Below, piece by piece: positions 17,501-47,199 of a DNA stretch of 64,000 nt. Below the pieces are notes generated by a model that ran no database searches, was not told where the DNA came from, and was given only the letters and a program-made list of their open reading frames with translations. The DNA is from Selaginella moellendorffii (lineage: Eukaryota > Plantae > Lycopodiophyta), in NCBI RefSeq assembly GCF_000143415.4, contig NW_003314268.1, positions 1,193,247-1,257,246 on the forward strand, written 5' to 3'. The first letter of the stretch is position 1; each line of letters opens with the position of its first letter. A program made the translations under genes and the position numbers.

Positions 17501-18275
17501 TGTTTTTCTATGTAGGGTGAGTTGACAATGCCACCACACTAGCAAGTTTATAGTTCGCCATCAACATTCCACAACTACTCCCAATGATTGACATTGTCAT
17601 CTAGTGGAGCTTTGACATCCAGATATATTCAAACTGACCCTCAAGGTGGGCTACTATGTGAGCCACAGGTATAATATGATCCTATACACTTTTCATTTTT
17701 TTCCTTAGATTTGTTTGACTCATTTTTGTTTCTTTGCTAGACTCTCTTAGCACTTGTGGCTGTAGTGCACACCTATGCTAATAACAATCAATAGTCCTTA
17801 TCTTGTTGTCCTAGACACTATGACAATTGGTCCAAAGTCATTAGTGGGATGTCGTCTATGACACCCTTGGTCCTCTGGCCGTTTACCACAGCCTTTGTCA
17901 CCAAGTGGATTGCAATCCCAAAGACCTGGCATATACATTTATATGGCTGGAGAAGAGAGCCATTGGTGAAGGTGACGGAACTTGACGAGATAGTAGTGGA
18001 CCTCCTAGAGTGTCTTATATGGGGTGGCTTATACTCTAGTATTCCTTTCCATCCTGGCATAGCCCAACATGCAATTCTACTATCATTCCAAGCCTCAGGA
18101 ATCCAACCTTCATCCATAACCAACCCAGAAGCATTTGTCTAGCATGCAAGGTAGTTCAATGGTGGTGAAGCCCATGTCGAGTCTGCAAAATTTGGCCTCA
18201 GCTCTATCTAGCCTTGCTACTAGCCTCCTCAAACATTATGGGGAGCCATAGAAAACAAGGCCAATGGCAACCGAG
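14600..18275. repeat. Unclassified decayed AT-rich segment, duplicated inverted at ~22170-25270
   Basis: Colinear reverse-complement homology with many transitions and indels; fragmentary ORFs only; probably an old TE, family not identifiable by eye. Confidence 0.6.
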
Positions 18276-19373
18276 TGTAAGCCATAAAGTTTTTCTTTCC
18301 AGTTTGCCAGCTTACCTCGTGTATCCGACCAACACTGCCTTGGCTTGTGTTAAGTTCGCTCGCCAAGGTTCCCGCCTATTGTACCAGCCCCTACTTGGTC
18401 CTACTTGGTTTCAGCTATTCACTACATGAGCAATAAAGTGTTAGCCATCCATCTACAGATTCCCAATTCTCTCCCAATCCCCCTTCCCGGGTTAGACTGG
18501 ACTTAAAGTTCGATTACACTCCCCGCAAGCACAAGCAGCCAAGCACACCAAGCCTCCAGGTTCCAAACACCCCTTGGTACAACAAAACTTGATCATGAGA
18601 CCCTCTAAATCCCAAGCCTTGGGTGCAACACTTGCTTCGGGACATCGGGGCGAAACACCGTGGCCTAACGGCCCAGTATGGGTACCTCTACCCCCCCCCC
18701 ACTTCCATCCCGAAGGGAAGGCCCAAGCCCCTAGGAAGGGCGAGGACCAAAGAGCCACAAGGTACTCACGTGGGGCACCACTCCACATGAGTCGGGAGCA
18801 CCATAGTCGATTTCCCTTTCGGGAGTGGGAGCTGCTCTTGAACACTTCCCTGGGTGGCCCCTCTGGCACCATCCAAGCCCATGCTCACTCCCACTCAAGG
18901 CCCCTCAGCCCTAGTCTCAACCTCAAGTCAGTTTGGAAGCACCACTAGAGAGTTCCTTCAAGACTGGTTCCTAGACCCCCCCCCCTTGGGAGATGCATGC
19001 TTTGGGCTTTCACCCCTTGACCTGTATTAGTATTTGGACTTAGTCTCAAATTCGATCTTGGACTTGATCTCGGACCCGACTTCGGACTCGGTCTCGGACT
19101 CGATCTCGAACTCGATCTCGGACCCAATCTCAGACTCGACTTCGGACTCGGTCTCGGACCCGATTTAGATCTCGGACTCTGTCTCGAACTCGGTCTCGAA
19201 CTCGGTCTCTGATTTGGCCTCGGCTCGATCCCGGACTCTATCTCAAAGTCGGTCTCAAAGTCGGTCTTGGACTTGATCTTCGACTCGGTCCCATCCGATG
19301 AACTCTTTGTTATTTCGGTCATGCTTTCGGGGATCCTTTAGCCTACGACAGCTCGAGGAGTCGGTTTCTTACA
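18276..19373 (-). mobile_element. 3' LTR of chromovirus element A, displaced by inversion
   Basis: Reverse complement of LTR 32239-33400; TG..CA ends; PPT just beyond 19373; flank CCGAG (18271-18275) is the reverse complement of TSD CTCGG. Confidence 0.93.
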
Positions 19374-19799
19374 ACTCCATCACCCATAGAAGAAGTTCGA
19401 TGCCTACATCGAACGCCTCTTTTTTATCCTACGACTTGTTGACCATGTCTCCAGGGGCATCCCCCCACTTAGCGGTGTGCCTAAGTTAGCCTCCCCGGCC
19501 AAGAGCCCATGACAACGGAATATAGGTGTCCCTATATTCCTCACCTCACCACGCCCTAGTATGGGGTTGGGACTTGAACCTAGCCTTGCTTTACTAGGGG
19601 GTTGGGACTCGAACCCAACCTCCGTAGAATACGTCTACGGATTCGACATCCCCGCGGGGAGTCGGGCGTAGTGCCCTACGCTTGGTCAACCTAGCTAACC
19701 CATGCTAATTAGCTTACCTTCGGTGCGCCTTTGGGTCCCAACATATGCCACTTGCTCAACTTTGCAAATTGATATTTTAATTGAACTTTGCATAAGTAC

Positions 19800-19978
19800 A
19801 TAGAGTTCTGCCTTGTAGAAATTCCTCCATTAAATCTTGCGCGTTCGCTAGGTTCTCCTTCGGTTCCCATGTTGCTTCATAGTGTGGAAATCCTTTCCAC
19901 TTCACATGGAACTCTCTCACCTTGTGTCCTTGTCGCTTACTATTGCGCGCATTGAGGATGGCCTCAACTTCATAACCA
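19800..19978 (-). mobile_element. Integrase C-terminal chromodomain of element A
   Basis: GYEVEAILNAR...REFHVKWKGFPHYEATWEPKENL, a canonical chromodomain. Confidence 0.9.
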
Positions 19979-25270: not shown

Positions 25271-25363
25271 AATTGTGCTAATGAAAAAACTCTATGGTTT
25301 TTCTGTGGCAGTGGTGTTATACATATGGGGTGGCGGCTTTGCAGCAGTCCAGCACAACGGTGT

Positions 25364-25544: not shown

Positions 25545-25881
25545 CAAGGTACTCGCATATTTTCTTTCTAATGATCTGGTCCGTGAGTTTGTTTCCATGG
25601 TCCGTGCGACCAGAGCTTCTGCATACACGTCGTGGAATTCACTTGATTTCCAGAATGCGTCGCCAAGTAAAAGGCTGCGGAGCTCGAAGACTTCTCGCCA
25701 CAGGCGATTCTGGGAGATGATTTTCAAGGCTTTGGATTTCTTTGTTATTTAAAAAATTGTCGCAGCTTGGATTTTTTAAGAGTTTAGAAGAAATTTCAAA
25801 GATGCCAAGCTTAAAAGTCAAAGGTCGGACATCACATTGGATCCAGCGCACGGCTCTACAATTTAGGGGCAGAAAGTAGGA

Positions 25882-27416
25882 ATGTTTTGGGCGGTGCATA
25901 TAGTGGTCTTCCTCCTCACTGCTTTCATCCTCAAGCAATGGCTCTCCAGCATATCTCTCAATCTTCCGCCAGGCCCCAGAGGATTACCTCTCGTCGGCCA
26001 CTTCCATCTCCTGGCCATGGGCAAGCTCCCACACATCGCACTCCAGCAGCTCTCCAAGAGATTTGGACCCCTCTTTCACTTGCGCCTGGGATCTGTCCCT
26101 GTGTTCGTGGTTTCCAGTCCAGAAATGGCCAAGGAGTTTCTCAAGAACCACGACACGGAATTCGCCTATAGGCCTCGGAACAACGTGGTCTCCATAGTCG
26201 TGGATAGCAGGAGCATGTCTTTCTCGCCATATGGAGACTACTGGAAGAAGCTGAGGAAGCTCTGCGCCACGGAGATATTCACGGCCAAAAGGATGAGTAT
26301 GAACACGCAGATCATCCGGGACGAGCTGTGGGAGCTCAGTGGTGAGCTATTGAGAGCTTCTAAGGCTGGCCAAGTTGTTGGAGTGAGACCACACTTGAGG
26401 GCGCTCAGCTTCAACGTCATGACTCGCATTCTGATGAAGAAGACGTACTTTGGATCCAAGGCCTCGGGCGATCCCGCTATTGCGGCGGAGGCCTCGAATT
26501 TCATAGCGATGATTGATGAGATCCTCGAGGTGGGAGCGGCTTTCTCGATCACTGACTATTTCCCCTACTTGAGCTGGCTCGACTTGGTTGCCCGCCGTGC
26601 AAAGGTGGCCGGGGATAAAATGAATGGCTTCTTGCAAAAGGTTTTGGACGAGCAGCGCCCCGGTGAGGTTCCCGATTTCGTGGAGGTCACAAGGTCTCAC
26701 ATTGGAAACGATGTGGTCAGTCTCAGAGCTCTCCTCATGGTAAGTTGCAAATCTGTGGAACTTACTTGATTGTTCTGTGATCTTGATAGGATCTACTTCT
26801 TGGTGGATCTGAAACAGCATCCACTGTGACAGAGTGGGCTCTGGCGGAACTTCTTCACCACCCAGATTGGATGGTCAAAGCTCAGCAAGAGATTGAGAGT
26901 GTTGTTGGACGCACACGCATGGTCGAAGAGGGAGACATATCCAAGCTCGAGGTTTTGAATGCCATCATCAAGGAAAGCTTTCGTCTCCATCCTCCCGTTT
27001 CTTTGCTCATACCACATGCATCGGTCGAGGCTCAGAATGTTGCAGGCTATGACATCCCCAAGAATGCAATGCTTATTGTGAATGTCTACGCGATTGGCAG
27101 AGACCCTCGAGTTTGGAGTGATCCTCTGGAGTTTCAGCCCCAGCGATTCATTGGCAGCAGCATCGGTGTCAATGGCCAAGACTTTGAGCTGCTTCCATTT
27201 GGATCTGGAAAGAGGGCTTGCCCCGGGCTTCATCTGGGTCTTAGAAACGTCCAGCTCGTTCTTTCTAATCTTCTCCATGGATTCGAGTGGAAATTTCCTG
27301 GAAGCCCAAAAGATCAAACTATGGATGAAGCTATGGGAAACATAAGCTTCATGGCACACACTCTCAAAGCCAAAATCACTCCCAGGCTCAACGAAAGTCT
27401 TTACAGGTTGACTTAG
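25882..27416 (+). CDS. Cytochrome P450, CYP71 clan, copy 2 (exons 25882-26739, 26790-27416)
   Basis: Near-identical to copy 1 (6 aa differences seen: I/V, I/L, M/V, L/V, S/A, S/P); motifs intact. Confidence 0.95.
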
Positions 27417-27767
27417 GATCATTTGATAATATATTATATAACTCAAGATCATAGAATCAATTAGTCTCATACAATCTTCAAACCAAAATTTAATCATGTA
27501 GTACTTACAGATAACATTTAATGTTTGTCTCAACGATCTTGGGCAAATGCAACTGGACTAGCAAATCCTCTTGTTCAAGAAAAAGTCTGGAAACTTTTAA
27601 AGTTAGCAAGATGTGCCAAGCCCTTCACATTTTCCAGACCATAAATAGTGTCTGAAAATCTCACCTAATGTCTCAAATTTTGCTATGGCTAGAAGCTTAA
27701 TGTCAACACTATAAACTTCATGTAGTATAATGACTCTAAACTACTTACAAAGTGGAGGACAACCATG

Positions 27768-27904
27768 GAGGCATCAGCGAGGACGTAGCAGCAGCAATGA
27801 TTGTGAGCGGGTTCTGTCGTGAAGTTGTGGACCAGTTTGTTGGAGAGTTTGAGAGGGAGCTTCCCGAGCTTCTCAGGATGAAGCTCAAGGGCTCCGTTGG
27901 TTAG
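27768..27904 (+). pseudogene. Duplicated 3' end of SufB at the duplication junction
   Basis: [44 protein letters not shown] plus 3' flank homologous to 51677-51812 reversed. Confidence 0.9.
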
Positions 27905-28235
27905 AAGAGAGAGAATGAGCGAAGTCATCAAAGAATTGTGTTGATGAATTTGCTTTAAAGCTCAAGGTTAGATTGTTTTAGTTGAGCCTTAAGTGGACGC
28001 TGTACAGTGTGTATAAGTGGCATTAGTGCTATTTGAGCCACGAGAAGCCCTGACAAAAACTATACTTTAGAGTGATTCTACTATATTGCAATTGGCTGGT
28101 TTAATGTTTCTAGTTTCTAGATTGCTGGGGTTTCAGAGCAATTTGTATGCGTTTGTTGCACCAAAAATCTCTAGGATAGCACGAAATCAAGTACTTGAGA
28201 GCCAGCCTTTTGTCTTTATTTTAACATTAACGATG

Positions 28236-28239
<4 letters not shown>

Positions 28240-28280
<41 letters not shown>

Positions 28281-28321
28281 ATATGTATGTATGTATGTAT
28301 GTATATGTGTATGTATATATA
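28240..28321. repeat. Compound microsatellite (TA)n(TG)n(TATG)n
   Basis: Seen directly; much shorter in the paralog at ~51314-51345. Confidence 0.9.
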
Positions 28322-28329
28322 CTTAATAT

Positions 28330-31300
28330 CGATGTCTTGCCAAAATGCTTGCATGACACTCTTGGAAGGTCTCCTTGCATAAGTTGTGGCTTGAACTGAG
28401 AACTATAAGACCCTTTTGCCATAATAAATTCTCATGATACATTAGCTTCTCATGCGTATAGTCAGGATTATCACAAAACTGTTGCCAAATATCCGAAAGC
28501 ATCGGATCCAGCAAGTAGCCTTCGTGAATCTTATCAACATACACTGCTTGCTTCAGTACGTTCAAATCATCGTGAACCTAAACCCTAACACATCAGGAAG
28601 GATGTGCTTTTCCCTGTAGTGAAATCCAATGCTTGCAGTTGCTCCACCCAGCACTGCTATTTCTTGGACAAATGTTGTTGCTCCAAAATAAATTTGAGGC
28701 TGTGATGGTTTGTTTGGAGCATAAACTGTCGAGGCAACAGATAATGGTGGTAGCGACCAATTGCATGAATAACTGCTAGCATTTCCTGTTCATACACTAG
28801 TAACCTGAACTTCTGAACAGAGAAGCGACAACTATCAAAGGCCACCAATTCCTCTCCTTGGCAGAGAACTGCTCCAATTCATGCATCTGATGCATCAGTA
28901 TCAACAATGAAAAGTTGCGAGAAATCTGGAAGCAAAAGTAACAGTGCACCCAGAAGTCGTTGCTTCAGCAACTCAAATGATTCTTGGGCTACATCTGACC
29001 ATTGAAAAGTAGAAGAGCGCAAAATATTGCTGAGCAGAGCCGCAATAGAGGCAAGCAATGTAAATAGTTTACAAAGCCATAAAAAGCTCATAGTTGCTTC
29101 AAAGATTTGGGAAGTGGCCAATTTGCAACAACTTATAATTGTGATGGATCAACCCATACCTTGCCAATGTCCTACACAAAATCTAAGGTACTGAATGGTC
29201 TTCAGTCCAAAAGAACACTTGGATAACTTTGCAACCAAAGCATTGTTCTCCAATGGATAAAATCACTTCCAAGTGGTGCAAGTGTTCTGTCCAGTTCTGA
29301 CTATAGATTAGTATGTCATAAAAAAGAAATTATAACGAACTGGAAGAAATACATAGCCAAGAGCTTGTTCACGAGACTTTCAAACGTAGTAGGCACATTA
29401 GTAAGGCCAAAAGGCATTACTCTGAATTGAAACAATCCTTGGTGAGTCCTGAATGCTGTCTTGGCCTTGTCCTCATCTTGCATGGCAATATGATAGTAAC
29501 CAGAATGAAGGTCAATCTTGGAAAAGAACTTGGTGCTGCCAAGTTCATTCAGAAGCTCATCTACCCTGGGAATAGAGAACCTATTCTTGACGGTTATCCT
29601 GTAATCCACCACCATGAACCATAAAAGATGTGAACAAACTATTGCTTTCCTCCACCAACCCTTCCTGTTGTAATTCCTCCACCATGGTATCAACGTTGGC
29701 TCGTCCCTCCCTACTCAGACGAATTATCAGAAAGTTAACTGTGATGGAGTGCGGTTCTAACTCAATCCGATGTGTGATCCTAGTGACTTCACTAAAATGA
29801 TTACTAATTTTCCGAGTGAAAACATGGGCATGCTGGATTGCCACTGCCTTGATATCTGCATGCATGGAGGAAGACTTTATGTCTGTCACTGCCTCCTCCA
29901 CCTCAACTGATGAGAACTCTTCCCCCTTCCCACAAAGACTGGAATCGAGTTGCCTATCACTAGCAACCAAATTCATTGCACTACCACTTTCTTTGCTGCT
30001 TTCTTCAAGTGTAGTCTTGAGCTTATTCAAGTCCCCACTCCTTTCTTCACAGTGTTGTCCTGCTTTCTTCACACCCAGACTTGAAGCTTGAGCAAGAAAC
30101 CCACTACTTTCTCCACAGTGTTGTCCTACTTTCTTCACACCCGTCTCTAGCTGCCCACATGGACCACTACTACTTTCTTTGCAGTGTTGTCCTGCTTTCT
30201 TCACACCCAGGTCCAAAAGATGCAGCTCAGCTATCTTTTTTTCTTGAAGGTACAAAAGAAAGGAAAGTTGTTGGGCTCCTTCCAAAAAGCTCTCTACCGT
30301 CTCCAGCATACTTGCATTCGAACGGGTACGATTATTAAAAAACGCCGATTAAAACGCGCGTATAATACGGCGTTTAAAACGGCGTTTAAACACCAAGAAT
30401 ATTTTTAAAAACCCTAAAGAATATGCTTTCTTTTACTTAGGATTAGGGTTCATGTAAAATCAGGGTTCGAAAAAAACCGTAAAATCAGGGTTCGAAAAAA
30501 ACTGAAAACCATTATACCCGTTCGAAAAAAAGCTAAACAGGTATTAAACGTTCGATACCCGTTCGAATCCGGTTGCGTTCGAATGTTCGGATGCAAGTAT
30601 GGTCTCCAGCAACCCTTCGTGTCTGCCTCACATGACACTCTGGAAAGAGGCGAGTTCTCTCTCCCCATCACGGCAGTATCTCTGGCAGTTCCCCACTAGC
30701 CTCTTGTGTGAAGAAGTAACCCGAGCTCCTTGAGCCGAGATTCCAAGGTCTGCTACTTCTCTGCTAAAAGACACATCACTGCTATGCTCTCATACTATTG
30801 ATCTGCTAACAACTGGACCAAAACTTGCATGCCCCGGATTGTAGCTATGACTTGCTGCTGGTGAAGAAGATTCTGCTTGATCAATGCTTGCATGGTTGAT
30901 TCCAATTGCTGGATTATCAATCCTTGCTCTTCCTTTTCCCCTTCTTGGTCATGCACCTGATTTGGATTGGAAACTCACTCTAGCTCCTCGTCCATTAGTG
31001 TGGTGGCCTCAATTTGCTTCTTTATTGGCCTCATGTTTACAAATTTTGCCAAAGATGCTAGAGAAGCCATTTGCAAAGAAACCCTATTTCGCCATAGCAC
31101 CCATACAAAGGGATAACTGACTCTAAGTTGGTCATGCTGATTAACTAGCTGAAAATGACATCTGCTAAGACTCCCATAACCAAAATCCTTTTTAGGATTG
31201 CCTGCATTAGCCCCATCCTTTGCTATGATGCCAAACCCTTGCCTGGTACACCCAATATGATTGGTAGTGTTGCTTCGATACCACTGTTTAGATCTGCCCA
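28330..31300 (-). mobile_element. Decayed Ty3/gypsy remnant (element C) copy 1, most of gag and the protease deleted
   Basis: RT (FSKIDLHSGYYHI, FRVMPFGL) and RNaseH (FIVDTDAS) remnants; homologous to 47200-51300. Confidence 0.85.
30307..30601. mobile_element. hAT-like MITE (295 bp) with 8-bp TSD GTCTCCAG
   Basis: TIRs CATACTTGCATTCGAAC / GTTCGGATGCAAGTATG; TSD at 30299-30306 and 30602-30609; empty site in the paralog at ~49280. Confidence 0.92.
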
Positions 31301-34300
31301 GATCTCCTAGTAGGAATCACTAATATATTCCATGGAAGAGAAATACAGAGGAGGAAAAGAGAGAAATTGGAAGAGGAGAGAAGAGAAAATAGAACCCAAA
31401 AATATAACCTACCTTCCATACCAATTTCTCCCTCCTTTAATGAGGAATCCTTGCCGTACCGTGCTCACCAAGCTTAAATTGTCCAGGTCAAAACTGTCCA
31501 AGGAAGCAATGAGAACACTTCCTAACAACAAGGCTGTGTGTGTTTTCTTTTCAAGGTTCCATGTGGCTGCTTTGGCACACACATCGTGGAATTTGCTCAA
31601 TTTCCAGAATGTTTTGTCGCACTTGCCAAGCAAAAGGCTCAAAAACTTATTGCCACAAGTAATTCTGGAGGATAGGGATAAAGGTTGGAAATTCCTTAAG
31701 GGCTTTGCTGCATTGCTGCTGGATTAGATGAGCCATGAATATGCCTTGAAGAAGGTCTAGGATCTCAATGCTGAGTTCTTGGACAATCTTCCTGTCATTG
31801 ATATGATTTTAAATTTCTTTCCTATTCCCATATAATTGCTGTACAATGTTGTAACTGCTGTGTTGCTGTACAAAGTTGTGTACAACTTCAGTCCATGTTA
31901 TCCTATGTGGGAAAAGTTTCTTCCAGCAATGGAAAAATGTCCTCTTCATCCACAGTTTTCTTCTTCATTATTCTCATCTTGGTTTGGTTCTTGTGTGGCT
32001 GGCCTCAGGAGAAATGGCTCTATCACCAAGGGATCATTATTTGTAATCAAGGCATTTGTAGGAGCTACAACTGTAAGGACCACAACATATATTTATGAAG
32101 AGAGAATTTAAAAAAAATAATGACTTACGTTCACAAACATCCTTCTCCTCGAGTGCTTGGGCCTAATTTTAATAACTTAGCCAATGTTTGTCAATAAGAT
32201 GCTCCATAACATCGTATAAGTAGATTACTATTGCTCGGTGTAAGGAACCGACTCCCCGAGCTGTCGTAAGCTAAAAGATCCCCGAAAGCATGACCGAAAT
32301 GACAAAGAGTTCATCGAATGGGACCGAGTCGAAGATCGAGTCCAAGACCGACTCTGAGACCGAGTTCGAGATAGAGTCTGGGATCGAGCCGAGGCCGAAT
32401 TGGAGACCGAGTTCAAGACCGAGTTCGAGACTGAGTTCGAGACAGAGTCCAAGATCCAAATCGGGTTCGAGACCAAGTCTGAGGTTGAGTCCGAAGTCGA
32501 GTCTGAGATCGGATCCAAGATTGAGTTCGAGATCGAGTCCGAGACCGAGTCCGAAGTCGGGTCCGAGATCGAGTCCGAGATCAAATCTGAGCCTAAGTCC
32601 AAATACTAATACAGGTCAAGGGGTGAAAGCCCAAAACATGCGTCTCCTGGGGGGGGGAGGGGGGGGGGCTGTAGAGGGTTCCAAAAGTATAGTAGGGATA
32701 GTGAGGTCCAGGAACTAGTCTTGAAGGAACTCTTTAGTGGTGCTTCCAAACTGACTTGAGGTTGAGACTGGGGCCGAGGGGCCTTGAGTGGGAGTGAGCA
32801 TGGGCTTGGATGGTGCCAGAGGGGCCACCCAGGGAAGTGTTCAAGAGCAGCTCCCACTCTTGAAAGGGAAACCGACTGCGGTGCTCCCGACTCATGTGGA
32901 GTGGTGCCCCACATGAGTACCTTGTGGCTCTTTGGTCCTTGCCCTTTCTAGGGGCTTGGGCCTTCCCTTCGGGATGGAAGTGAGGGGTAGAGGTACCCAT
33001 ACTGGGCTGTTAGGCCACGATGTTTCGCCCCGATGTCCCAAAGCAAGTGTTGCACCCAAGGCTTGGGATTTAGAGGGTCCCATGATCAAGTTTTGTTGTA
33101 CCAAGGTGTTAGGAACCTAGAGGCTTGGTGTGCTTGGCTACTTATGCCTATGGGGAGTGTAGCCAAACCTTAAGTCCAATCTAACCTGGGGAGGGGGATT
33201 GGGAGAGAATTGGGAATCCGTAGATGGATGGCTAACACTCCATTGCTCGTGCAATGAGTAGTTGAAACCAAGTAGGACAAAGTAGAGGCTGGTACAATAG
33301 GCGGGAACTTTGGTGAGGGAACTTAGCATAAGCCAAGGCAGTGTTGGTCGGATAGACGAGGTAAGCTGGCAAATTGGAAAGGAAAAATTTGTGGCTTACA
33401 ATTTGGTATCGGAGCCTTTTCCTCAGTTCTAGCGAAGGATAGAGGTGGATTGCTCGGAGATGGCAAAGGCAGGGCGTAAGCGAACCCAGGTGGAGACGGA
33501 ACCTCTGCCAAAGCTGGAGCCTCCGGTCGAACAAGAGGCTATGGATGAGGAATCCTTGCATGAGGAGGACTCTAGTGAGGAAACTTCCAAACATGAGTCC
33601 GGTGGCGAGGTTCGGTCGTCTAAGGCTCGATTGGACGTTCTAGAAGGACAATTGGCGCAGACCAATGCCCTGCTAGAGACTCTCGTACGCAAGCTAAAGC
33701 GTGACGAGAAGCGGAAGAAAAAGCGAAAGACTGCGGATGCTGGTAGCGCAAAAGGTGCGGACCCTTCGGCAGGGACTGAGGCAAAACTAGACAAGGTCGA
33801 ACAGACCGAAGTGGAATCAATCCCTCAGGCAATTCCCAAGTACAAACCAAAGCCCCCACCGGTCTTCAAGGGAGTGAACAACTATAAGGTGGTGGAGGAT
33901 TGATTTTACGATATGGAGGACTACTTCCGAGCATTGCGGTTACCAAGCTCGGAGAAGGTCCCATGTGCAAAACCATATTTGGCAGATAATGCCAAGTCTT
34001 GGTGGAGAATGACAGAGGCCAACGAAGGACCTGTGGCCACTTGGGAAATGATGAAGGCGAGGATCCGCGCGACTTATGTTCCTCCGAATGCTACTCTGCA
34101 TCTAAGGGACAAGCTGAGTAGGCTGAAGCAGACCGGAACCATTCAGGAGTATGTGAATGGGTTTATGGCAAAGAGGATACTTGTCACGGACATGGGGGAT
34201 ATGGATGCATTCCATGCCTTCATATCAGGTTTGCAAACCTAGGCTCGCAGTGAGGTGATGCGGTGGAACCCAACCAACTACAAGGAAGCATTGGATGCGA

Positions 34301-37300
34301 CCATCAAGGTGCATTTCAACGATAACCTACAAAAGGGGAACACAACGGGGTCGGGATCCACGTTTAGCAAAGGGGCCAAACCAAGGGGAACGTATAGCAG
34401 GGGGAAATTCAAGAAGAGTTTCTCTAAGAATGAGTCCTCGGGGTTCCGGAAAGGCAAATCCAATGGCCAGCGAGCGAGTACGTGGGGGAGTCAAGCGAAA
34501 AGAGACAAACCCATGGATAAGAAGGTCAAGTCATATAGCAGCGTGGGAAACAACGTATGCTACAACTGCGGTGAAGCGGGACACTTTTCGAGGGAATGTC
34601 CCTACCCGAAGAAGGCCAGAGCCAATATGGCCATCAAGTCGGGTGAAGTCCAAACTGAGGTATGTGATCCAGTCCCTAACTCAAAGTTACTCATTACACG
34701 AGCAACTTTGGTAGAGAGTCGTTCGCGACATCTACTAGCCCTCCGAGGGAAGCTCGGAGGTAGCTTTGTTAAAATCCTTATTGACACGGGTGCTTCGGAT
34801 AATTTTGTGGCTGCAGACATAGTCCGGCAAGCCGGACTAACGGTGCAGCGGCTAGGCGAACTAAGGACTATAGAGTTTGTTCAAGGTAGCCAAAGGACCG
34901 ATGAGGTACTTTGACAAGCGAGAGTCGAAGTAGGGACATGGAAAGTAGACATGGATTTCACCGTGTTGGACATGGTGGGATTTGACATGATCTTCGGAAT
35001 GGATTGGTTCAATCGATTCGTGGTGGCCATGCATGGACAAGGTAGGAACCTTGTGGTACTGGCGAATGCCCAAGGAAGAAGATTTAGGGTGGAGGCCCAG
35101 GATCTAAAGGTAGGGCAAAGCAAGGCCAAAGATTCCTGCTTAAACCTGGTGTCCACGAGAGGATAACTCACTAAAGGAACTAAGGCAGCTTTTTTGTGCT
35201 TACTCTTGGTGAAGAGTGACAAAAAGATAGAAACGGAAGAAGTACCTTTAGTGATCCAGCGGGTGTTGGACCAATTCCAGGATACCATGCCAGAGGAGCT
35301 ACCAGCGGGGTTGCCCCCCGCACGACCGATAAAACATAAGATTGAGCTGGTCGAGGGTGTTGAGGCGGTGGTTCGTCCCCCCTATCATTTGAACGAAAAA
35401 GAACTCAAGGAGCTCAAGTGCCAACTAGAGGAGTTGGTGGACAAAGGGTATGTTAGGTTAAGCAAGTTGCCGTATGGGGCGCCGGTGTTATTTGTGAAAA
35501 AGAAAGATGGATCTATGCGCATGTGCATAGACTACCGGTTGCTCAACAAGTATACAAAGAAGAACAAGTATCCTGACCTTAGGTCAATCCTTGAGAAGTA
35601 TTTTGCCTTTCCCAACCTATCGAACATGTCCTCAATTCTTGGCAAAGGGTACTACCAGATCAAGGTAGCCGAGGAAGATGTCAAGAAGACAACTTGTCGA
35701 ACGAGGTATGGGAGCTATGAGTGTTTGGTGATGCCCTTCGGGCGATGCAATGCGCCGGCAACGTTTTCGGCGCTGATGAACCACATCTTTGTACCTTATC
35801 TGGATCACTTCATGGTCGTTTATATCAACGACATCCTGATCTATAGCGAGACACTAGAGGAGCATGCCGAACACTTGGCGAAGGTGTTTGAGAAACTAAG
35901 GGAACACAAACTGTATGCTAAAGAGAGCAAATGTGACTTTGCTCAACAAGAGGTAAAGTTTCTTGGGCATGTGGTGGGCCAGGACGGGCTCAAGGTGGAC
36001 CCGGAGAAGGTCCAAGCGATCCAGGAATGGGAGCGACCATCAAATATGAGTTGAGGGCATTCTTGGGGCTATGCAACTACTACCGAAAGTTTATTAGACA
36101 CTATTCAAGAGTAGCCCTGCCCTTAATAGACCAAACAGGAAAAGGGAAGATGGTATGGACAGTGGAATGCGAGGCGGCATTCGTCCATCTCAAAGGGAAG
36201 TTGAGGAAGGCCCCCCGTGTTAGCATTACCAGACTTTGGTAAGGACTTTGAGGTAGAAACAGATGCTTCGGACTTTGCGTTGGGCGCAGTTTTGAAGCAA
36301 GACAACCATCCAGCAACGTTCTTCTCGAAGAATTTAGACAAGGCTCAACGGAAGTGGCCTGCCCACGAGAAGGAATTGTTTGCGGTGGTCAAGGCGCTCA
36401 AGGAGTGGCGACACTACCTTGGGAGACACTTCAAGGTTTACATGGACAATGTGGCAACGAAACACTTCTTATCACAGCCCGACTTGAGAGGGAAACAAGG
36501 TCAGTGGGCCAATGCCTTGGCCAAGTTTGATTGTGAGATTCTGTACAAGCCTGGGAAGAACAACATCGTGGCGGATGCGCTAAATCGAAAAACGAGCTTG
36601 AGGTTGGTGATATCCAGTGCAACAGCAACCTTTTGGGATGATGTGCGGACAGCATATGAGAATGATGGTCTAGCACAAGAAGTGTTGTTGAGGAATCTAG
36701 AGGCATGGGAAGCTCACCAAAGAGGTGAGCTGCCAACGGAAGAGAAAACGAGCTATGCGGAACGCAACAGACTCATCTATTACAAGCAAACGAGGGTGTA
36801 TGTTCCAGAAGGGGAACTAAGGAAGGTAGCCTTAGAAGAGTGTCATGACGGACCTCTTGCAGGACACGGCGGAGTGCCCAAGACAATAGGCTTACTCAAG
36901 AGGAAGTACCATTGGCCAGATATGGCTAAGGACGTCCAAGACTATGTAAAGACATGTCCAACATGTTAGCAGGTCAAAGCCGTGACTAAGGCTAGTGGGG
37001 GCTTGTTGCAAAGCATCCCAATTCCAGATCGTCTGTGGAAATGTCTTATGATGGACTTCATCACGGGACTTCCCCCAAGCGAGGGGTTTGATGCGATATT
37101 CGTGGTGGTGGACCGATTTTCGAAAATGGCACATTTCATACCCACCACAACGGAAGTGGATGCGGAAGGTGTGGCGAAGCTGTTCTTCGAACAAGTGGTT
37201 CAAGTGCGGGGAAGGCCAGAAGAGATCATCTCAGATCGAGATAAGATCTTCACTAATAGGTTCTGGAGGACTCTCCTGGAACAGTATCGCACCAAGTTGA

Positions 37301-37330
37301 AATTCAGCACAACCTATCACCCACAGACAG

Positions 37331-37377
37331 ATATGGGGTATTAAGTCAAGTTTGGTAGCACTAACACTTCTTGACAG
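37331..37377 (+). other. Intron-like insert 1 in element A integrase (donor GT>AT, branch CTAAC, TTGACAG acceptor)
   Basis: Removal restores HPQTDGQTERVN exactly. Confidence 0.75.
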
Positions 37378-37777
37378 ACGGACAAACGGAAAGGGTGAAT
37401 AGGCAGCTGGAGGATTATTTGCGATGCTATGTCTCAGAAGACCAGACCGATTGGGTAAGTTATTTGGGACTTGCGGAAATGTGTTATAACAACTCACCAC
37501 ATTCGAGTATCAGGGTGAGTCCATGGGAAGTCATCAATGGGCGAGCTATTGAAGGTCCTGTGGAGCTCGGCGTGGCCGAGTACTAGGAGAGCTGGCCGTA
37601 GTGGAGGCATTCACGGCAGAAAGACTCAGCATTTGGAATCTAGTGAGGGATTCCTTGGAACGGGCTCAACGTGAACCAAAAGCGTCAGGATGTAGAGTTC
37701 CAAGCTGGGGAGAAGGTGTGGTTGAACACCAAGAACCTCAGGCTACCAAGTGGGATCAGCCGAAAGTTGATCTAAAG

Positions 37778-37829
37778 GTAAAAATGCATGTATTCCTGTA
37801 AATGAATTGATTTTGAGTTCCTTAAGCAG
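37778..37829 (+). other. Intron-like insert 2 in element A integrase (GTAAAA...GCAG)
   Basis: Removal restores the KL..RFAGPYEI (GPY/F) motif in frame. Confidence 0.8.
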
Positions 37830-38003
37830 GTTCGCTGGGCCCTACGAGATTGAGGCACGAATCGGTAAAGTGGCTTACCGTCTCTGACTTCCTCGAGAGA
37901 TGGGGAAGATGCACCCAGTGTTCCACGTGAACTTACTCAAACCGTACTTTAAGGATCCACTTCGCAAGGACCAAGTGAGACCTTTACCTAAGATTATCCA
38001 AGG

Positions 38004-41000
38004 GTTTGCCAACACTGCCACTAGATCGAGGCCCACAGGCCCGACCACTAAGTCCCATGGTCCTCTGGGACTTCCTCACCACACGACTGTGTCCTTAGTC
38101 ACTACCCCAGAGGACTGCTCCTCTTCCTTTCCACAGTTTAGGCCTTTGGGACAACATTTCAGAACACCGTGGCCTTACGCGAGCCACCTAGGTACTCTCC
38201 CCGCCTTTCGCCTTTAGGTGCTCTAGCCATGGGCTTAGAGCGAGGTTCCATTGAGCCACACCTGGTATCCAAGTAGGTAGTGCCACCCACACTTGGACTG
38301 GGAGCATCGGCCAGTCGATCTCCCGGGGGAACTAGAGCCGGCTCTTGAACACTTCACCAAGCTACCCCGCTTGTCGGTCCATATTCACTCTAGTCTTGGA
38401 CTTCCCAGTGGTCAGTTCATCACCCAACACTGGGTCTGGCCTTCCTGGGCCAAACTGGCCTTTCCTGGCCAAACTGGCTCCACTGCAGTCCTCCCCCTAC
38501 TATACTTTTGGAGCTCACCAAACCCCCCAGGGTCTGGGAGATGAACGCTTTGGGCTTTCACCCTCTCAGACTCGAACTCGGACTCGGACTCGGACTCGGA
38601 CTCGGACTCGGACTCGGACTCGGACTCGGACTCGGGCTCGGGCTTGGTCTCAGCCTTGGCCTCGGTCTCGGTCTCGGTCCCGGTCTCGGTCCCGGTCTCG
38701 GTCTCGGTCTCGGTCTCGGTCCCGGTCTCGGTCTCGACCTCGGACTCCATGTCGGGTCCTTCTCGGACTCCATCTCGAACTCCATCTCGGGCTCCGTCTC
38801 GGTCCATCTCGGACTCCATCTTGGGTCCATCTCAGACTCCGTCTCGGTCCACCTCGGACTCCATCTCGGACTCCATCTCTGGTCCATCTCGGACTCCATC
38901 TTGGACTCCATCTCGGGTCCATCTCGGACTCCGTCTCGGTCCACCTCGGACTCCATCTCGGACTCTATCTCGGGTCCATCTCGGACTCCATCTCGGGTCC
39001 ATCTTGGACTCCATCTCCACTGCAGTCCTCCCCTGCTGGCTCCACTGCAGTCCTCCCCCTACTATACTTTTGGAGCTCACCAAACCCCCCAGGGTCTGGG
39101 AGACGAACGCTTTGGGCTTTCACCCTCTTAGACTCGAACTCGGACTCGGACTCGGACTCGGACTCGGGCTCGGGCTTGGTCTCAGCCTTGGCCTCGGTCT
39201 CGGTCTCGGTCCCGGTCTCGGTCCCGGTCTCGGTCTCGGTCTCGGTCTCGGTCCCGGTCTCGGTCTCGACCTCGGACTCCATGTCGGGTCCTTCTCGGAC
39301 TCCATCTCGGACTCCATCTCGGGCTCCGTCTCGGTCCATCTCGGACTCCATCTCGGACTCCGTCTCGGTCCATCTCGGACTCCATCTTGGGTCCATCTCG
39401 GACTCCGTCTCGGTCCACCTCGAACTCCATCTCGGACTCCATCTCGGGTCCATCTCGGACTCCATCTCGGACTCCATCTCGGCTCCATCTCGAACTCTGT
39501 CTCGGTCCACCTCGGACTCCATCTCAGACTCCATCTCGGGTCCATCTCGGACTCCATCTCGGGTCCATCTCGGACTCCGTCTCGGTCCACCTCGGACTCC
39601 ACTTCGGGTCCATCTCGGACTCCATATCGGACTCCATCTCGGACTCCACTTCAGACTCCATCTCGGGTCCATCTCGGACTCCGTCTCGGTCCACCTCGGA
39701 CTCCACTTCGGGCCCATCTTGGACTCCATATCGGACTCCACTTCAGACTCCATATCGGACTCCACTTCAGGTCCATTTCGGACTCCAACTAGGGTCCATC
39801 TCGGACTCCATCTCAGACACTTCCACGTGTCATGTGTTAGTCCCTTTTGGGTCCTTTTTTGGAGCCTTGCTTATTGCTCGCTTCGTGCTCGCTCCTTGAG
39901 CACTTTGTTGGGAGTTCCACTCCCGCTCTCGACCTTCCAAGTCAGAGGTTTTAGTCCAAATGTGTTACATTCGTTTGGGCTTTCGCTTCGGCCACTACCA
40001 CGTGGCACCCTTTCCGGCTCCACTTTGGGGCCTAGGGATTTTGTGTCTCACAACTCCACCACCCACCCATAGACGAAGTTCGATGTCCTCATCGAACGGT
40101 AAACCATTTTATAAAGTAACACCCGCATGTGTTACCATTTCCATCCTTGGCACCTAGCCAATATTTGTCAATGGTTTGACATTGAAGGCTCACCATGCCT
40201 TCTCCATATTCGTCAATGGTTTGACACAAAAGGCTCACCATGCCTTGCCCATCCTCTAAGGAGGATAGTCTCTCCAACTTAGAGACTCACTTGACCACCT
40301 GGGGTGGGTTGCTCCTTTTTATTGGTTCAGTCCTCGCTAAACCCATTAGAGACACCCTCTCTAACTCAATTCCAGTACTCATTCTTGAGTAGTCACAGAT
40401 TCCATTGATCTACCTTTGCACTTTGGAACGTTTACTTTTGACTTCTTGAAATCAAGTTCCTAGGTGTCTCCGACACCTTGCCTTGCACATTTTGTGCAAC
40501 TCCACTTCCCCTCCTAGGAAGTTCTCTACTCGAGGGCACCCTCATCCTCTTTTCTATTTTTGTGCCACCATTGGCATTACGTTCCATTTATCATTATTTG
40601 TGCTAGGGCTATCCACGGCCCTATCTTTTGGCTCCTTAGTTGCTCCCTCACTTGGAGCCTTTCCTTTGCCAAATTGGAGCACTTGGGAATCCGTCCTTAG
40701 AAGTCCACTTCTTTTTCCGCAATCCGTTAGCACCAAACACATTAGTGTTCTTTGGCTAACTTTGCCACTTGGATTCTTTCCAATGGATTCCACGGCCCTA
40801 TCTTGGGCACTCGTCTTTTGCTCCTATCCTTGGATTGTTGCACCAAGCAACATAGGATCATTACCTCCCTCCTGGAGGTATTCTTTTGGTTCCATAGCAA
40901 AGGATCTGCTTTGCCCAGACTAGGGTGTTCACCCCTAGTAAGTCTCCCCAACTGTTCTAGGCTCTCTTCCTAGCCCAACCTTGTGACCCACCCATGGGCC

Positions 41001-44000
41001 TGTCTTTGGAAACTATTTTCTTGAACTCATAATACCATTGTATTGTAGTAGTTCATTTCCCTTAGGTGTCCTTCTCACTTAGTCACCTTGACCAAGCCAC
41101 ACCTTTATCAATAGTTCAAATCAACACTTTGAACTAGGAATTATATTCCTTTACCCAAACAAAGACCTTGTCCTTGTTTAGCCATAAGATCACCTAGTGA
41201 TCTCATCTTGACCCTTTAATAGGTCTACCAATAGGAATTAGGTCTTCCCGACCTTACTAAGTTGTTGACTATGACCCCGGGGGCATCCCCCACACTTGGC
41301 AGTGCGCCCAAGCTAGCCCTTCCGGCCAAGGATCCATAGCAACTGAGACTGGGTGTCCCCATCTCATTCACCATGTCCTTGGTGCCTTTTGCACCAAAGT
41401 GTTCAAGTTAGATATGCTGAGCTTTCACTCTAAGCAATCTAACCGTGCATCACGACTCCGAGGCATCCCTCGCTTGGCGGTGTGCCCAAACCAGTCTCCT
41501 CACTGAGAGTCCATGACCACCGAAATATGAGTGTCCTCATATTCCAAACCATCACCACGCCCTAGTGATTTGGGACTCGAACCCAAGCACTAGAGGGTCG
41601 GGACTCGAACCCAACCTCCATATATGCATCTACGAACGGCATCACCCAGGATGCCTGGCGTGACTCCCCATGCCGGTGCACCAACTTATACTCAAAACGC
41701 GCTATAGATCACTGCTTAGGAACCTAGTTCCTCCACACTGCCAAGTCCTCTCACTTGACAAGTCTGTGATCATGCATGGACTCATCCATGCTTGGCCCCA
41801 TGGACCACCCTTTTTGAAGTTATCACCTTCAACTAGGGTATTTGTTCCCCTGACTTGCCAATCTCACTTTGGCAAGTCCTCCGACCACTGTAACATGGTT
41901 CCTGCACAAGCGTGAAAGCCCTTGATCATCGACTTTCGTTCAAAGCCCTCTCTTTGAACACTCACGAACTACTTCCCTAACCTTGATAGCCTTGCCTCAT
42001 GGCAAGCTTCAAGACCACGCTTCTGCTGCGCCACTCTGGTTTCGAGCATTCTTTGAACCATTTACGTTTGGCCTTTCTAGGTACTAAGTTACCTAGAATC
42101 ATCTTTGGGAACCTTGAAGGAACTCTGTCCCTTAGCTTGCTAAGGCCTCCCTTTTGGCAAGCTTTCCAATTACCATATAGTCTAACATGGACAATTCCAT
42201 ATTTTAGACTCTCCATGGCATCACGGTTGCTAGCAGCAACACCCTTAAGCCCCCATTTGATTCTCCACTCCTAGCTGGCATAACCAACCTTGGTTATGCC
42301 CTTCGATTCCTATGGTTTGGTTCTACCCCCATACTTCTTGCTTTTGGCTTCACACCTTTCCTTCGGTCATTCTCCTCCAGACCAGGAAGATAGCTTTGCA
42401 CTTTCTATCATGCCTTAGCAAGTATTCTTAGGGATGAACCTACCTGATAGCATAGGGAGTGGTTCCTCAATCCAGGTATGCTCACCCTATAATCCCACAC
42501 ACCGAGATTACGTTGTTGCTTATGGGCCTTTACATGCCCATCGCTAGCCTTGCCAAAATTCCATTTTTGGCTTTGTCCAATTCGAGTAGACAGTCTTCTC
42601 CTGTCTCTACCACCTTGGACATTTGGATAGCACCTTCTATCCATCATTCGCTAGGGACTTAGTCCCTTGGGCCTTATCTATTGCCCTCGCGACATCAAAC
42701 ACCACCTCCTAGTGTTCTAGAGTGTTTAGGTGTCCCAATGACGGCTTCCTTGACAATGAGTATTTCCTTTCATGATATTGACTTACTATATCGCAACATA
42801 AGCAACTTATCCCCCGTAAGGGTATATCCAATTTCCTTATGCCATTAAGAAGGCTTGGGTAGCTACCTTCTGCCCATTTAACCAATTATTTTGCACCTCT
42901 TGCTTAGTTGCCTCATAGTTGTTAAGTCCTACAACTCATTACTGGTGCTTCCACACCTCCATCATTATCTGGGTCACCACACTCCAACTGCATGCTCTGC
43001 AGCTTAGGCTATGCCATTCCCATTTCCATTGGGATTCCTTTGGCAAGGGGTTCTCATGAACCCACCAACATAGCCTCAAGGTATCACACCTTGGCACATT
43101 TGGTGTCTCCACACCATTGGCTCCACGAGCCTACCTTTATGACACTTCTTCTTTGTGTCTAAGTCTTTGCCAAGACCAATACCGCTCTTTCTCATGCCAA
43201 CCATCCGTCAGCACTGCACCATAGAGGTCACACACAACTTTGTTTCAAAGTTGTTTTCTTTTTGGGAACACCCTTCCCACGACTTTAGCATGGCACATTT
43301 TGCCATCGATGAGATACCCTCTGTTCTCATCCTTGGATCCTATGATCCCCCCCATCTTTCGTGGGGTACCACACACTTCAGTCCAAATGCTTCCATCAGT
43401 CCTTTAGGACCATTCCTTGACTCTACTTGAGTCATCCAGCAGTTTTGGACTTGGTTAATCCATAGACCCGTAAGGTCCTACTTGTCGGGCACTAGCTCAC
43501 TGGAATACACTTCTTGCATTCATGTCCTCACTCACAAGGATTATTTTCACAAGTGTTACTCTGACACTTGATTTTATTCTCTGGGGCAACCTTTGCCCCT
43601 TAGGACTACTTGTCCATGTGATGAGAGTACCAACTCATCTCTAAGTACACCCACCCAACTCCTTAGGTTGTTCCAGCATTTATTAAAGGTAGCCCTGGCT
43701 ACCATTTCAAGGACTTGAGCCCTCTTCCGTATTTGACCTCTCACAGTCATTACTTCTGGTCTCACATTCATGAGCACGAACCTCAACTATATGAGGATAA
43801 TCTTGTGACTCCTTTATTACTTTGGAGTCTTTATCTTTCCCGTGATCCCAACTATAGTTGTTTATCACAACTACGTTAGCCCGTTTGTTGCATCAAACAC
43901 TCATTTGGATCACATCCTCAGCTCTCTAAGGAAACCTTATACTGTTCCCAAGATCCCAAAGTCGTTCCATTATTGGCCCTTTTCTATCCACCACATTGTG

Positions 44001-46069
44001 CCGAAGTTCACGCATGAACTTGAGTGGAGAGCCATGTCCTCTCGACATGCTACTCCTCAAGGATAAGCCCACTCCTAGGACCTTCCGATGCCAACATCAA
44101 TGGTGATATACTTGAGCACCAATAAAAGTCGGACTAAAGAACAGCTCCGATACCAAGTTGTAAGCAACTAAATTTTCCATTCTACTTTAGTCACTTAACC
44201 ACACCTTCGACCACTTGGAGGAGTCTCATTCACAACCTCCATCAGTCCAATTCAGGACTTGGGACTTGCTAGCCCCAAGAATGGCATCCATGCCACTCAA
44301 CACTTGCACCTGGTCCAAGTGCTCCAGGTGTCCGGTCCCAAGACCGACACCCAAAGGTACCACTGACATCTCGGCCCGTTAGGCTAAGGCCATGCCCATT
44401 CACCTTTGCTGCACTAGTGGTCCAATACCACTTGCATCACCATCCCGTCTCTTCAAGACTGGGCCATCTGTCCATGAGTGGTCATCCTAGATCCACTCTT
44501 TAGCATCCTTAGGATGCCCACAGACCTGGGGAATCGCCTTCCCCAAAGTCCCTTTGTCAGTTCCTACCAAGTCCCTTTGTGCCCCTGGCCGTGTTTGCCA
44601 ACACTGCCACTGGATCGAGGCCCACAGGCCCGACCACTAAGTCCCATGGTCCTCTGGGACTTCCTCACCACACGACTGTGTCCTTGGTCACTACCCCAGA
44701 GGACTGCTCCTCTTCCTTTCCACAGTCTAGGCCTTTGGGACAACATTTCGGAACACCGTGGCCTTACGTGAGCCACCTGGGTACTCTCCCCGCCTTTCGC
44801 CTTTAGGTGCTCTAGCCATGGGCTTAGAGCGAGGTTCCGTTGAGCCACACCTGGTATCCAAGTAGGTAGTGCCACCCACACTTGGACTGGGAGCATCGGC
44901 CAGTCGATCTCCCGGGGGAACTAGAGCCGGCTCTTGAACACTTCACCAAGCTACCTCGCTTGTCAGTCCGTATTCACTCTAGTCTTGGACTTCCCAGTGG
45001 TCAGTTCATCACCCAACACTAGGTCTGGCCTTCCTGGGCCAAACTGGCCTTTCCTGGCCAAACTGGCTCCACTGCAGTCCTCCCCCTACTATACTTTTGG
45101 AGCTCACCAAACCCCCCAGGGTCTGGGAGATGAACGCTTTGGGCTTTCACCCTCTCAGACTCGAACTCGGACTCGGACTCGGACTCGGACTCGGACTCGG
45201 ACTCGGGCTCGGGCTTGGTCTCAGCCTTGGCCTCGGTCTCGGTCTCGGTCCCGGTCTCGGTCCCGGTCTTGGTCTCGGTCTCGATCTCGGTCCCGGTCTC
45301 GGTCTCGACCTCAGACTCCATGTCGGGTCCTTCTCGGACTCCATCTCGGACTCCATCTCGGGCTCCGTCTCGGTCCATCTCGGACTCCATCTCGGGTCCA
45401 TCTCAGACTCCGTCTCGGTCCACCTCGGACTCCATCTCGGACTCCATCTCGGGTCCATCTCGGACTCCATCTTGGACTCCATCTCGGACTCCATCTCGGG
45501 TCCATCTCGGACTCCGTCTCGGTCCACCTCGGACTCCATCTCGGACTCCATCTCGGGTCCATCTCGGACTCCATCTCGGGTCCATCTTGGACTCCGTCTC
45601 GGTCCACCTCAGACTCCACTTCGGGTCCATCTCGGACTCCATCTCGGACTCCACTTCAGACTCCATCTCGGGTCCATCTCGGACTCCGTCTCGGTCCACC
45701 TCGGACTCCACTTCGGGTCCATCTCGGACTCCATATCGGACTCCATCTCGGACTCCACTTCAGACTCCATATCGGACTCCACTTCGGGTCCATCTCGGAC
45801 TCCAACTAGGGTCCGTCTCGGACTCCATCTCAGACACTTCCATGTGTCATGTGTTGGTCCCTTTTGGGTCCTTTTTTGGAGCCTTGCTTATTGCTCGCTT
45901 CGTGCTCGCTCCTTGAGCACTTTGTTGGGAGTTCCACTCCCACTCTCGACCTTCCAAGTCAGAGGTTTTAGTCCAAACGTGTTACACTCGTTTGGGCTTT
46001 TGCTTCAGCCACTACCACGTGGCACCCTTTCCAGCTCCACTTTGGGGCCTAGGGATTTTGTGTCTCACA
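38004..46069 (-). mobile_element. Non-autonomous LTR element B (LARD/TR-GAG-like): 5' LTR 44159-46069, split 3' LTR 38004-40052 (plus 19976-20405)
   Basis: PBS (reverse complement gctccgatacca, ~44144-44155), PPT beyond 40052, TSD TTGCT; the ~4.1 kb internal region lacks recognisable RT/IN motifs. Confidence 0.88.
38570..39820. repeat. Degenerate hexamer/dodecamer tandem array (CTCGGA, CTCGGACTCCAT) in LTR B; also 45160-45840 and related arrays in LTR A (~19035-19290, ~32320-32600)
   Basis: Seen directly. Confidence 0.92.
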
Positions 46070-47199
46070 AGCAAGAAGTGAGAACATAGTGCTTTAGATA
46101 AGGTAGTATGGTATGCAATTTGGTCAATTGTCCATATGGTTTGCAACATTAGCAACTTGCTTGAATGCATGGGATGAATGGGTCTATGGGCCATGACTGG
46201 CTCCATTCCACACATAACACGGGTCATTGCTATGGGTATGATACCCCATCCGGGGCATAAGGATTGGATATTCATAAAATATTCTATGCCTGTGTTTTTT
46301 TCACTCATATTACACGAAAACCAATAGCAGCCAGACACGTGGTGTGAGTGAAATATGCCATTGTAATTTCCACCCTTTTATGAATTGCACACCATATTTT
46401 CAATGTACAATAGCCGAGAAGCAATTTAAATTTTTGACAACGTGGTAGTATGGCAATGTGAATAATACACATGGCAGTTTTAAGAACATGATTTCAAGTA
46501 GTATGTTTAATAGGTCAATCTTTATAGCACTAGAAACTTTTTCATTAACTTTCATTCCAACATTGTACAGCAATTATATGAGAATAGGAAAGAAATTTAA
46601 AATCATGTCAATGACGGGAAGATCGTCCAAGAACTCGGCGTTGAGATCCTAGACCTTCTTCAAGGCATGTTCATGGCTCATCTAATCCAGCAGCAATGCA
46701 GCAAATCCCTTAAGGAATTTCCAACCTTTATCCCTGTCCTAAGTTTTTGAGCCTTTTGCTTGGCAAGTGCGACAAAACATTCTGGAAATCGAGCAAATTC
46801 TGCAACCAAAGCTCTAGCCACAAGGAACCTTGAAAAGAAAACACGCACAGCCTCGTTGTTAGGAAGTGTTCTCATTGCTTCCTTGGACAGTTGACAATTT
46901 AGGCTTGGTGAGCACAGTATGGCAAGGATTCCTCATAAAAGGAGGGAGAATATGGTACAGAAGGTAGGTTATATTTTTGGGTTCTATTTTCTCCTCTCTC
47001 CTCTTCCGATTTCTCTCTTTTCCTCCTGTATTTCTCTTCCATGGAATATATTAGTGATTCCTGCCAGGAGATCTGGGCAGATCTCAACAGTGGTATCGGA
47101 GCAACACTACCGATCGTATTGGGTGTACCAGGCAAGGGTTTGGCATCATGGCGAAGGATAGGGCTAATGGAGGCAATCCTAAAAGCATATGTCATTTTC

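Follow-up and report, generated by a model that had tools for sequence, protein, structure and literature searches.

Passage through RNA is expected to purge introns from a retrotransposon, an expectation which is the basis of intron-loss retrotransposition reporters as presented in PMC12786077. The locus described here, in a window of 64,000 nt (the whole stretch of DNA that was analysed) within a 212-Mb assembly of Selaginella moellendorffii, raises the question of how an LTR retrotransposon can carry introns inside its integrase and still be copied through RNA. Indeed, a reading made from the sequence alone had reported two inserts of 47 and 52 bp interrupting integrase motifs and had proposed either a family which replicates unspliced RNA and makes integrase and chromodomain from spliced RNA only, or a gain of the inserts after insertion by an introner-like process.

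Both inserts were confirmed (coordinates in Table 1); the first reads ATATGG...CTAAC...GACAG, the second GTAAAA...AGCAG, and each changes the reading frame. Their removal does restore the integrase motifs, since three intronless plant homologues aligned to the three segments run over both breaks with contiguous residue numbers and no missing residues. Moreover, the motif HP[QE][TS]DGQ[TS]E is unbroken in 100 of 120 homologues. A DNA search gave 1174 candidates, of which 40 were scored and 30 retrieved including the window copy, and both inserts are present in all 29 other retrieved copies. Across these, insert 1, of 46 or 47 nt according to the subfamily, begins with GT in 29/29, ends with AG in 28/29 and contains CTAAC in 28/29, while insert 2 reads GT..CAG in 29/29 and shows by inspection no CTAAC-type match. 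The inserts are thus neither chance nor private to the window copy, and the AT that opens insert 1 in this copy, rightly suspected to be a mutated GT donor, is its own private decay. The GT donor and the YAG acceptor of a U2-type spliceosomal intron are present at both integrase introns, and their GC contents are 43% and 33% respectively, compared to 51-53% in the exons.

Table 1. Features of the window copy, including the parts displaced by inversion (positions in the window).
Feature	Position	Strand	Basis or remark
5-bp target-site duplication CTCGG, left copy	32234..32238	+	identical 5 letters behind displaced 3' LTR
5' LTR (TG...CA), 12-nt tandem repeats and poly-G tract	32239..33400	+	
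Leader intron, 66 nt, GT-AG, across LTR end and primer-binding site	33361..33426	+	homologous 66 nt skipped in run X2; loose end of X1 contig fits donor exon
Primer-binding site, tRNA-Met type	33404..33416	+	sequence; type according to the family description in PMC3350952
Exon 1: gag, zinc knuckle, protease, RT, RNase H, integrase to second catalytic Asp plus 31 codons	33460..37330	+	Pfam, spacing
Facultative 157-nt GT-AG intron, in reading frame, over protease active site	34660..34816	+	skipped in X1, X3
87-nt inversion within RT, decay of window copy	35567..35653	-	
Integrase intron 1, 47 nt, phase 1, in-frame stop of the unspliced frame inside	37331..37377	+	skipped in X1, X2, X4, X15
Exon 2: catalytic Glu of D-D35-E (codon 37389-37391) and remaining integrase core	37378..37777	+	
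Integrase intron 2, 52 nt, phase 2, GT..CAG at AG/GT site	37778..37829	+	skipped in X1, X2, X4, X6
Exon 3, first part: SH3-like integrase C-terminal domain, ends at inversion breakpoint	37830..38003	+	Pfam PF24626
Exon 3, second part: chromodomain, displaced by inversion	19780..19974	-	PF00385, E 6e-17; collinear with L036 from the end of the plus-strand part
3' LTR, displaced	18276..19373	-	old copy, with 83 mismatches over the 1168 columns aligned with the 5' LTR
Target-site duplication CTCGG, right copy	18271..18275	-	

The window copy itself is no longer functional. In addition to the mutated AT donor, a stop occurs at 37773-37775, just before insert 2, with further stops elsewhere, its exon 1 is disrupted by stops and frameshifts, and its exon 2 carries a 17-nt deletion near 37669. 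Given that CTCGG stands at both outer ends and that the region 18276-19974 holds the chromodomain and the 3' LTR in inverted orientation, an inversion of ~18 kb has split this copy, and its chromodomain is not behind insert 2 but displaced with the inverted part. The inversion (19976-38003), which may be either genuine or an assembly artefact, has one breakpoint in the integrase of the window copy and the other in the LTR of a second LTR element, so that both elements are split. This second element (38004-46070 on the minus strand, plus 19976-20405) has LTRs of ~1.9 kb with similar 12-nt repeats and a tRNA-Met-type primer site at 44143-44155. Four of the five minus-strand frames tested in its 4-kb interior gave no Pfam match, and it is possibly non-autonomous. 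The window also holds long inverted repeats of 99-100% identity (12378-14036 with 25852-27510, and 28549-29253 with 50406-51110) and decayed gypsy pol fragments at 7940-10189, 28621-29615 and 49740-51200.

The gag-PR-RT-RH-IN domain order found by Pfam in the frames of L036 and of the window identifies a Ty3/gypsy LTR retrotransposon, with TG...CA LTRs, a duplicated target site (TSD) of 5 bp and a tRNA primer site all present, and the chromodomain PF00385 in exon 3 of L036 (E 2e-16) makes it a chromovirus. Ahead of the 3' LTR, L036 has a G-rich stretch interrupted by T. Among 20 copies taken at 10 kb, five showed exact 5-bp duplications; exact TSDs are recorded for L036, L040, L043, L045, L048, L066 and the window copy. 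Over ~1150 nt the two LTRs differ at 0 positions in L036, 2 in L043, 5 in L045, 9 in L040 and 12 in L048, and the young copies L036, L043, L045 and L040, with exact TSDs and LTRs 99-100% identical, carry both introns. Near-identical LTRs, exact TSDs and both introns in the same copies indicate that the family retrotransposed recently with its introns in place.

The family measures 7536 nt with LTRs of 1149 nt, poly-G tracts of 9-23, and a frame of 3885 nt or 1295 aa from the first Met followed by frames of 106 and 103 codons. SM1-Galahad of S. moellendorffii, as described by Novikov et al. 2012 (PMC3350952), is a 7.5-kb element present in hundreds of copies, with LTRs above 1 kb, poly-G tracts, a 13-nt tRNA-Met primer site and a frame of 3885 nt/1295 aa that lacks the chromodomain; two short frames come after it, and the chromodomain is in the second of these. 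Its second frame is given as 316 nt, compared to 318 nt here. The family fits SM1-Galahad in every feature compared with this description. In that description SM1-Galahad is read as three ORFs with no intact copy, whereas here these frames represent exons, and some copies have LTRs without a single difference; the main text of PMC3350952 has no match for 'intron' or 'splic'. The same source assigns SM1-Galahad to the Galadriel clade. In a FastTree tree of RT-RH-IN proteins, whose rows bear no clade names, the family and a sister family (0.947) stand near plant chromoviruses which are 51-56% identical.

In four of the eight copies examined, gag and the first part of integrase form one open frame of 1304 codons without a stop, which terminates at the stop inside intron 1, and exons 2 and 3 continue in other frames, exon 3 encoding the SH3-like and chromo domains. 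The Asp in the SDRD motif and the Glu in GQTE, which with their spacing of 35 residues belong to the D-D35-E integrase catalytic triad, reach that spacing only across intron 1, the Glu lying four codons past it. Since the stop in intron 1 comes ahead of the catalytic Glu, the integrase predicted from unspliced RNA lacks its third catalytic residue, and production of integrase and chromodomain needs splicing. Furthermore, variants common to at least 4 of 38 copies fall mostly at third positions, in exon 1 (71/433 against 19/866 at the others) and also in exons 2 and 3 together (18/256 against 13/512, p = 0.005), so that the downstream exons are under selection and were translated in their spliced frames during the spread of the family.

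Read data were mapped for 8 of 23 listed runs. No run among the listed holders of the element is recorded as RNA and the RNA status of the X1-X6 contigs is a guess, hence 'likely-RNA', whereas X15, X16 and X17 are recorded RNA runs, searched in ~12% of each and giving 10, 1 and 0 mapped reads. On the L036 reference, one likely-RNA X1 contig omits 52 and 47 nt exactly and another omits 157 nt, and all these skips read GT..AG on the strand of the element. On the L040 reference, likely-RNA run X2 skips both integrase introns as well as a GT..AG segment of 66 nt; both integrase introns are also skipped in X4, although for intron 2 one flank has just 24 letters; the 157 nt are skipped in X3, where one flank has 28 letters, other X3 contigs retaining intron 1 and the 66-nt segment with the primer site. 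One X6 contig (record 22, L040:5800-6599, depth 59), in which foreign sequence is fused to an element fragment, skips intron 2 and retains intron 1; it may derive from a host transcript that extends across a fragment of the element. Finally, one raw read of X15, out of 11 mapped from the recorded RNA runs, crosses junction 1 and skips intron 1 exactly.

Altogether, intron 1 is skipped in X1, X2, X4 and the X15 read (three studies), intron 2 in X1, X2, X4 and X6 (three studies), the 157 nt in X1 and X3 (two studies) and the 66 nt in X2 and X1 (one study), contigs being unable to tie separate splices to one molecule. The search for spliced junctions proposed in the sequence-only reading was thus answered by exact skips in likely-RNA contigs and by one read of a recorded RNA run. 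The X1 contig is unlikely to be DNA or a transcript of the one genomic copy that lacks both integrase introns, given that the two have in common only 17 of the 40 variants listed (out of 143). Its listed variants fall at third positions in 34/40 cases, and a search of 65 aligned sequences did not find its source copy, the best sharing 28/40 variants. We are highly confident that the integrase inserts are real spliceosomal introns needed for integrase.

The two remaining skipped segments, which the sequence-only reading had missed, lie elsewhere in the element. The 157-nt segment begins after the zinc knuckle and includes the protease DTG, and by frame arithmetic its removal leads to a stop one codon on, so the skipped form is predicted to be a Gag-only RNA; the X1 contig bearing this skip extends into RT. 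The 66-nt segment has its donor, GTAAGC, within the LTR and its acceptor, a CAG, ten bases past the primer site and upstream of the gag start, and contains the LTR end and the entire primer-binding site. The loose end of an X1 contig matches the exon at the leader donor with 2 mismatches in 22, X1 and X2 belonging to the same study. At the leader acceptor motif, the 482 genomic matches comprise 448 CAG, 33 TAG and 1 AAG, and among 20 TAG loci inspected the primer-site motif is matched in 18, while the two others show a mutated site and a local duplication, respectively.

Genomic loss of the introns was counted by exact motifs on the exon side, chosen because the original query contained the inserts; diverged copies are missed by such motifs and the assembly may hold alleles, so that matches are not copy numbers. 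For intron 1, 350 of 356 matches have an intron-type neighbour and all six others are precise absences, the intron being kept in about 98% of matched genomic copies. For intron 2, 702 of 710 matches have an intron-type neighbour, and two of the eight that differ are precise absences. The observed loss is hence about 0.3-1.7% of matched copies. By comparison, precise genomic loss was found in 0 of 309 matches for the 157-nt segment, and the primer-site intron gave 0 of 482, with no spliced junction (p = 0.006 in comparison with intron 1), although loss of the latter would be invisible under any RNA-based model and the 0/482 therefore does not single out a primer-site mechanism.

In a DNA tree built with intron columns removed for 40 of 43 copies (L030, L058 and L060 were excluded for low cover), the six intron-1-less copies are dispersed among intron-bearing ones, and their grouping as one ancestral clade is rejected (AU p 2e-37). 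As judged from this tree, the intron-1-less copies represent repeated losses and not the ancestral state. L052 and L053 have an identical TSD but flanks that do not align, which rules them out as alleles and brings the losses of intron 1 to five or six events. Among the intron-1-less copies, L068 and L069 have the same target duplication and 8-nt left flank, yet their flanks do not align. The copy which lost both introns and the one which lost intron 2 are sisters (support 100) at different sites, with LTRs 98.5% and 99.5% alike, and retain the primer site and the gag/protease segment; it is thus likely that an intron-less line has replicated. L065 (G000:C119:1-9500), in which both integrase introns are absent, is inserted in a second copy of this family, within its RT, and is flanked by duplicated target letters (5, including one mismatch).

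In retroelements only primer-bearing RNA is reverse transcribed, and the same is presumed for this family. Set beside the position of the leader intron, this suggests that RNA of the family is probably sorted by splicing, spliced RNA making integrase but lacking the primer site and unspliced RNA being the copied template. Unspliced RNA would retain the primer site, would be packaged and would be reverse transcribed, and if the copied template is fully unspliced, new insertions retain all introns. RNA spliced at the leader and at both integrase introns would give the full polyprotein and could not be primed, the leader splice presumably accompanying the integrase splices on one molecule in most cases, and RNA spliced across the protease site may supply excess Gag. 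The intron-less copies could then derive from rare molecules which had lost integrase introns while retaining the leader intron, or from template switching. With somewhat less assurance, we take removal of the primer site to be the main reason why the introns persist. Of the two proposals of the sequence-only reading, the family-wide GT-AG borders, the retention in young copies, the exact skips and the Glu behind intron 1 support the first, in which integrase and chromodomain are made from spliced RNA only. A splicing gate is nevertheless not essential in this host, as shown by the intron-less sister family, whose LTRs are up to 99.7% identical, and by the intron-less pair.

Alternatively, the introns could be real and required for integrase but be kept through inefficient splicing or selective export or packaging of unspliced RNA, the leader splice being incidental. 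Retained and partly spliced forms (X3 records 6 and 12, X6 record 22) agree with this, as does the repeated origin of intron-less copies with an intact primer site, and BARE1 is described as packaging a separate unspliced, uncapped RNA pool (PMC3735527). Against it stand the preservation of the leader donor and acceptor in nearly all full-length copies inspected, 481 of the 482 acceptors being CAG or TAG, and the X1 and X2 contigs, in which every covered integrase junction and the leader are spliced. We regard this alternative as unlikely.

The inserts could also be tolerated passengers if integrase came from a few copies without introns or from the sister family, and both the gapped contigs and the intron-less copies would then result from slippage at the DNA level or of reverse transcriptase. 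Contigs may contain DNA, one genomic copy does lack both inserts, and repeats of 4-5 nt flank the two integrase inserts; indeed, the junction repeats of the four introns measure 5, 4, 2 and 2 nt and genomic loss tracks them, which allows for slippage. Yet all four separate skips are GT..AG and two have no genomic counterpart, the X1 contig differs from the both-lost copy, exons 2 and 3 of intron-bearing copies keep their third-position excess and junction 1 is crossed by a read of a recorded RNA run. Moreover, a longer repeat of equal spacing in pol (9 nt, spaced 51 nt, motif conserved in 25/29) gave no deletion-type match genome-wide, a null result without a genome-wide denominator. The intron-less copies are more simply explained by partly spliced RNA, and the passenger explanation is improbable.

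As for the origin of the introns, other gypsy families of the genome gave 244 matches to the unbroken motif, 25 of which were inspected. The nearest intron-less family is 55-57% identical, has LTRs near 920 nt and fits SM2-Galahad as described in PMC3350952; its site 1 is intronless in 8/8 copies and its site 2 motif is unbroken in 6/6 copies where it was located. Given these intron-less outgroups, the integrase introns were likely gained in the line of this family after its split from the intron-less sister. One sister-family element, L110 (G000:C2:40660-50659), sits inside the integrase of a copy of the intron-bearing family. In the sister family (L106-L113), a TCAG or TTAG stands exactly 10 nt past the primer site, at the position of the leader acceptor, in six of the seven copies with the site, and the second element of the window has an AG 9 nt past its own. 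The presence of such an AG in two other families hints that the leader splice may be older and more widespread than the integrase introns.

The remaining proposal, that an introner-like mobile element added the inserts after insertion, is the least probable of all, for although many transposon types give rise to introners according to PMC12130899 and the 4-5 nt junction repeats resemble target duplications, hundreds of copies, those with identical LTRs among them, have the same two inserts in identical positions, no terminal inverted repeats are seen by eye, folding shows no notable structure (z -1.5, -1.2 and +0.1, the last two being the integrase inserts), and a search for dispersed homologues of insert 2 at unrelated sites found only element copies, including 4/4 matches with a changed upstream flank. 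Copy-by-copy introner insertion is thereby refuted, the inserts being inherited with the element; a single ancient gain of introner type into the ancestor of the family is conceivable.

Several known systems resemble parts of this scheme. As accounts of Ogre describe it, a retained intron is spliced from a subset of transcripts for downstream pol and genomic copies keep it, as here. However, Ogre is not a chromovirus and its intron, of ~274 bp on average, lies between the PROT and RT frames and hence between domains, whereas here two obligatory introns of 46-52 nt both lie within the integrase fold and a further intron removes the primer site. In foamy viruses, the major splice donor lies upstream of the primer site. 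Their Pol including integrase is made, according to PMC7828637, from a spliced transcript which is not the RNA packaged as genome, a likeness in logic only, as one large intron removes gag to give a separate Pol and small integrase introns are not described in that account. The short-Gag feature of EVADE and BARE1 is present, namely a facultative intron behind gag with an early stop: in the descriptions of PMC5580714 and PMC3735527 a facultative intron at the gag/protease border leads to a stop and a Gag-only RNA, as predicted for the 157-nt skip, but their pol comes from unspliced RNA, whereas full pol here takes two obligatory splices with the facultative intron retained. PMC5580714 describes the Ty3/gypsy elements of Arabidopsis as having no conserved splicing pattern. 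In Penelope-like elements, introns survive retrotransposition and one leader intron spans the terminal-repeat boundary, although these belong to a different order with a GIY-YIG endonuclease and no LTR/PBS priming, and PMC8557442 calls the meaning of their intron retention unknown. A 2025 review (PMC12786077) names Ogre and EVADE as notable exceptions to intronless plant LTR elements. Our literature search, with subscription journals, Repbase and supplements outside its scope, found neither integrase introns in LTR retrotransposons nor a primer-site intron; the family is thus known, while its four-intron expression scheme is apparently undescribed.

On balance, we favour the view that an LTR retrotransposon has made its mRNA non-replicable through splicing of the primer site, letting host-type introns enter and persist in a catalytic domain, so that four introns would define three RNA fates (genome, Gag and full Pol) and integrase would be tied to the host spliceosome. 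The family represents a natural high-copy exception to intron purging, with a testable reason, and bears on how RNA is divided between translation and packaging in LTR elements. Furthermore, it gives a measurable rate of intron loss in vivo and a dated intron gain beside an intron-less sister family. Finally, it shows that splicing and activity are possible in families whose annotation lists several ORFs and no intact copy.
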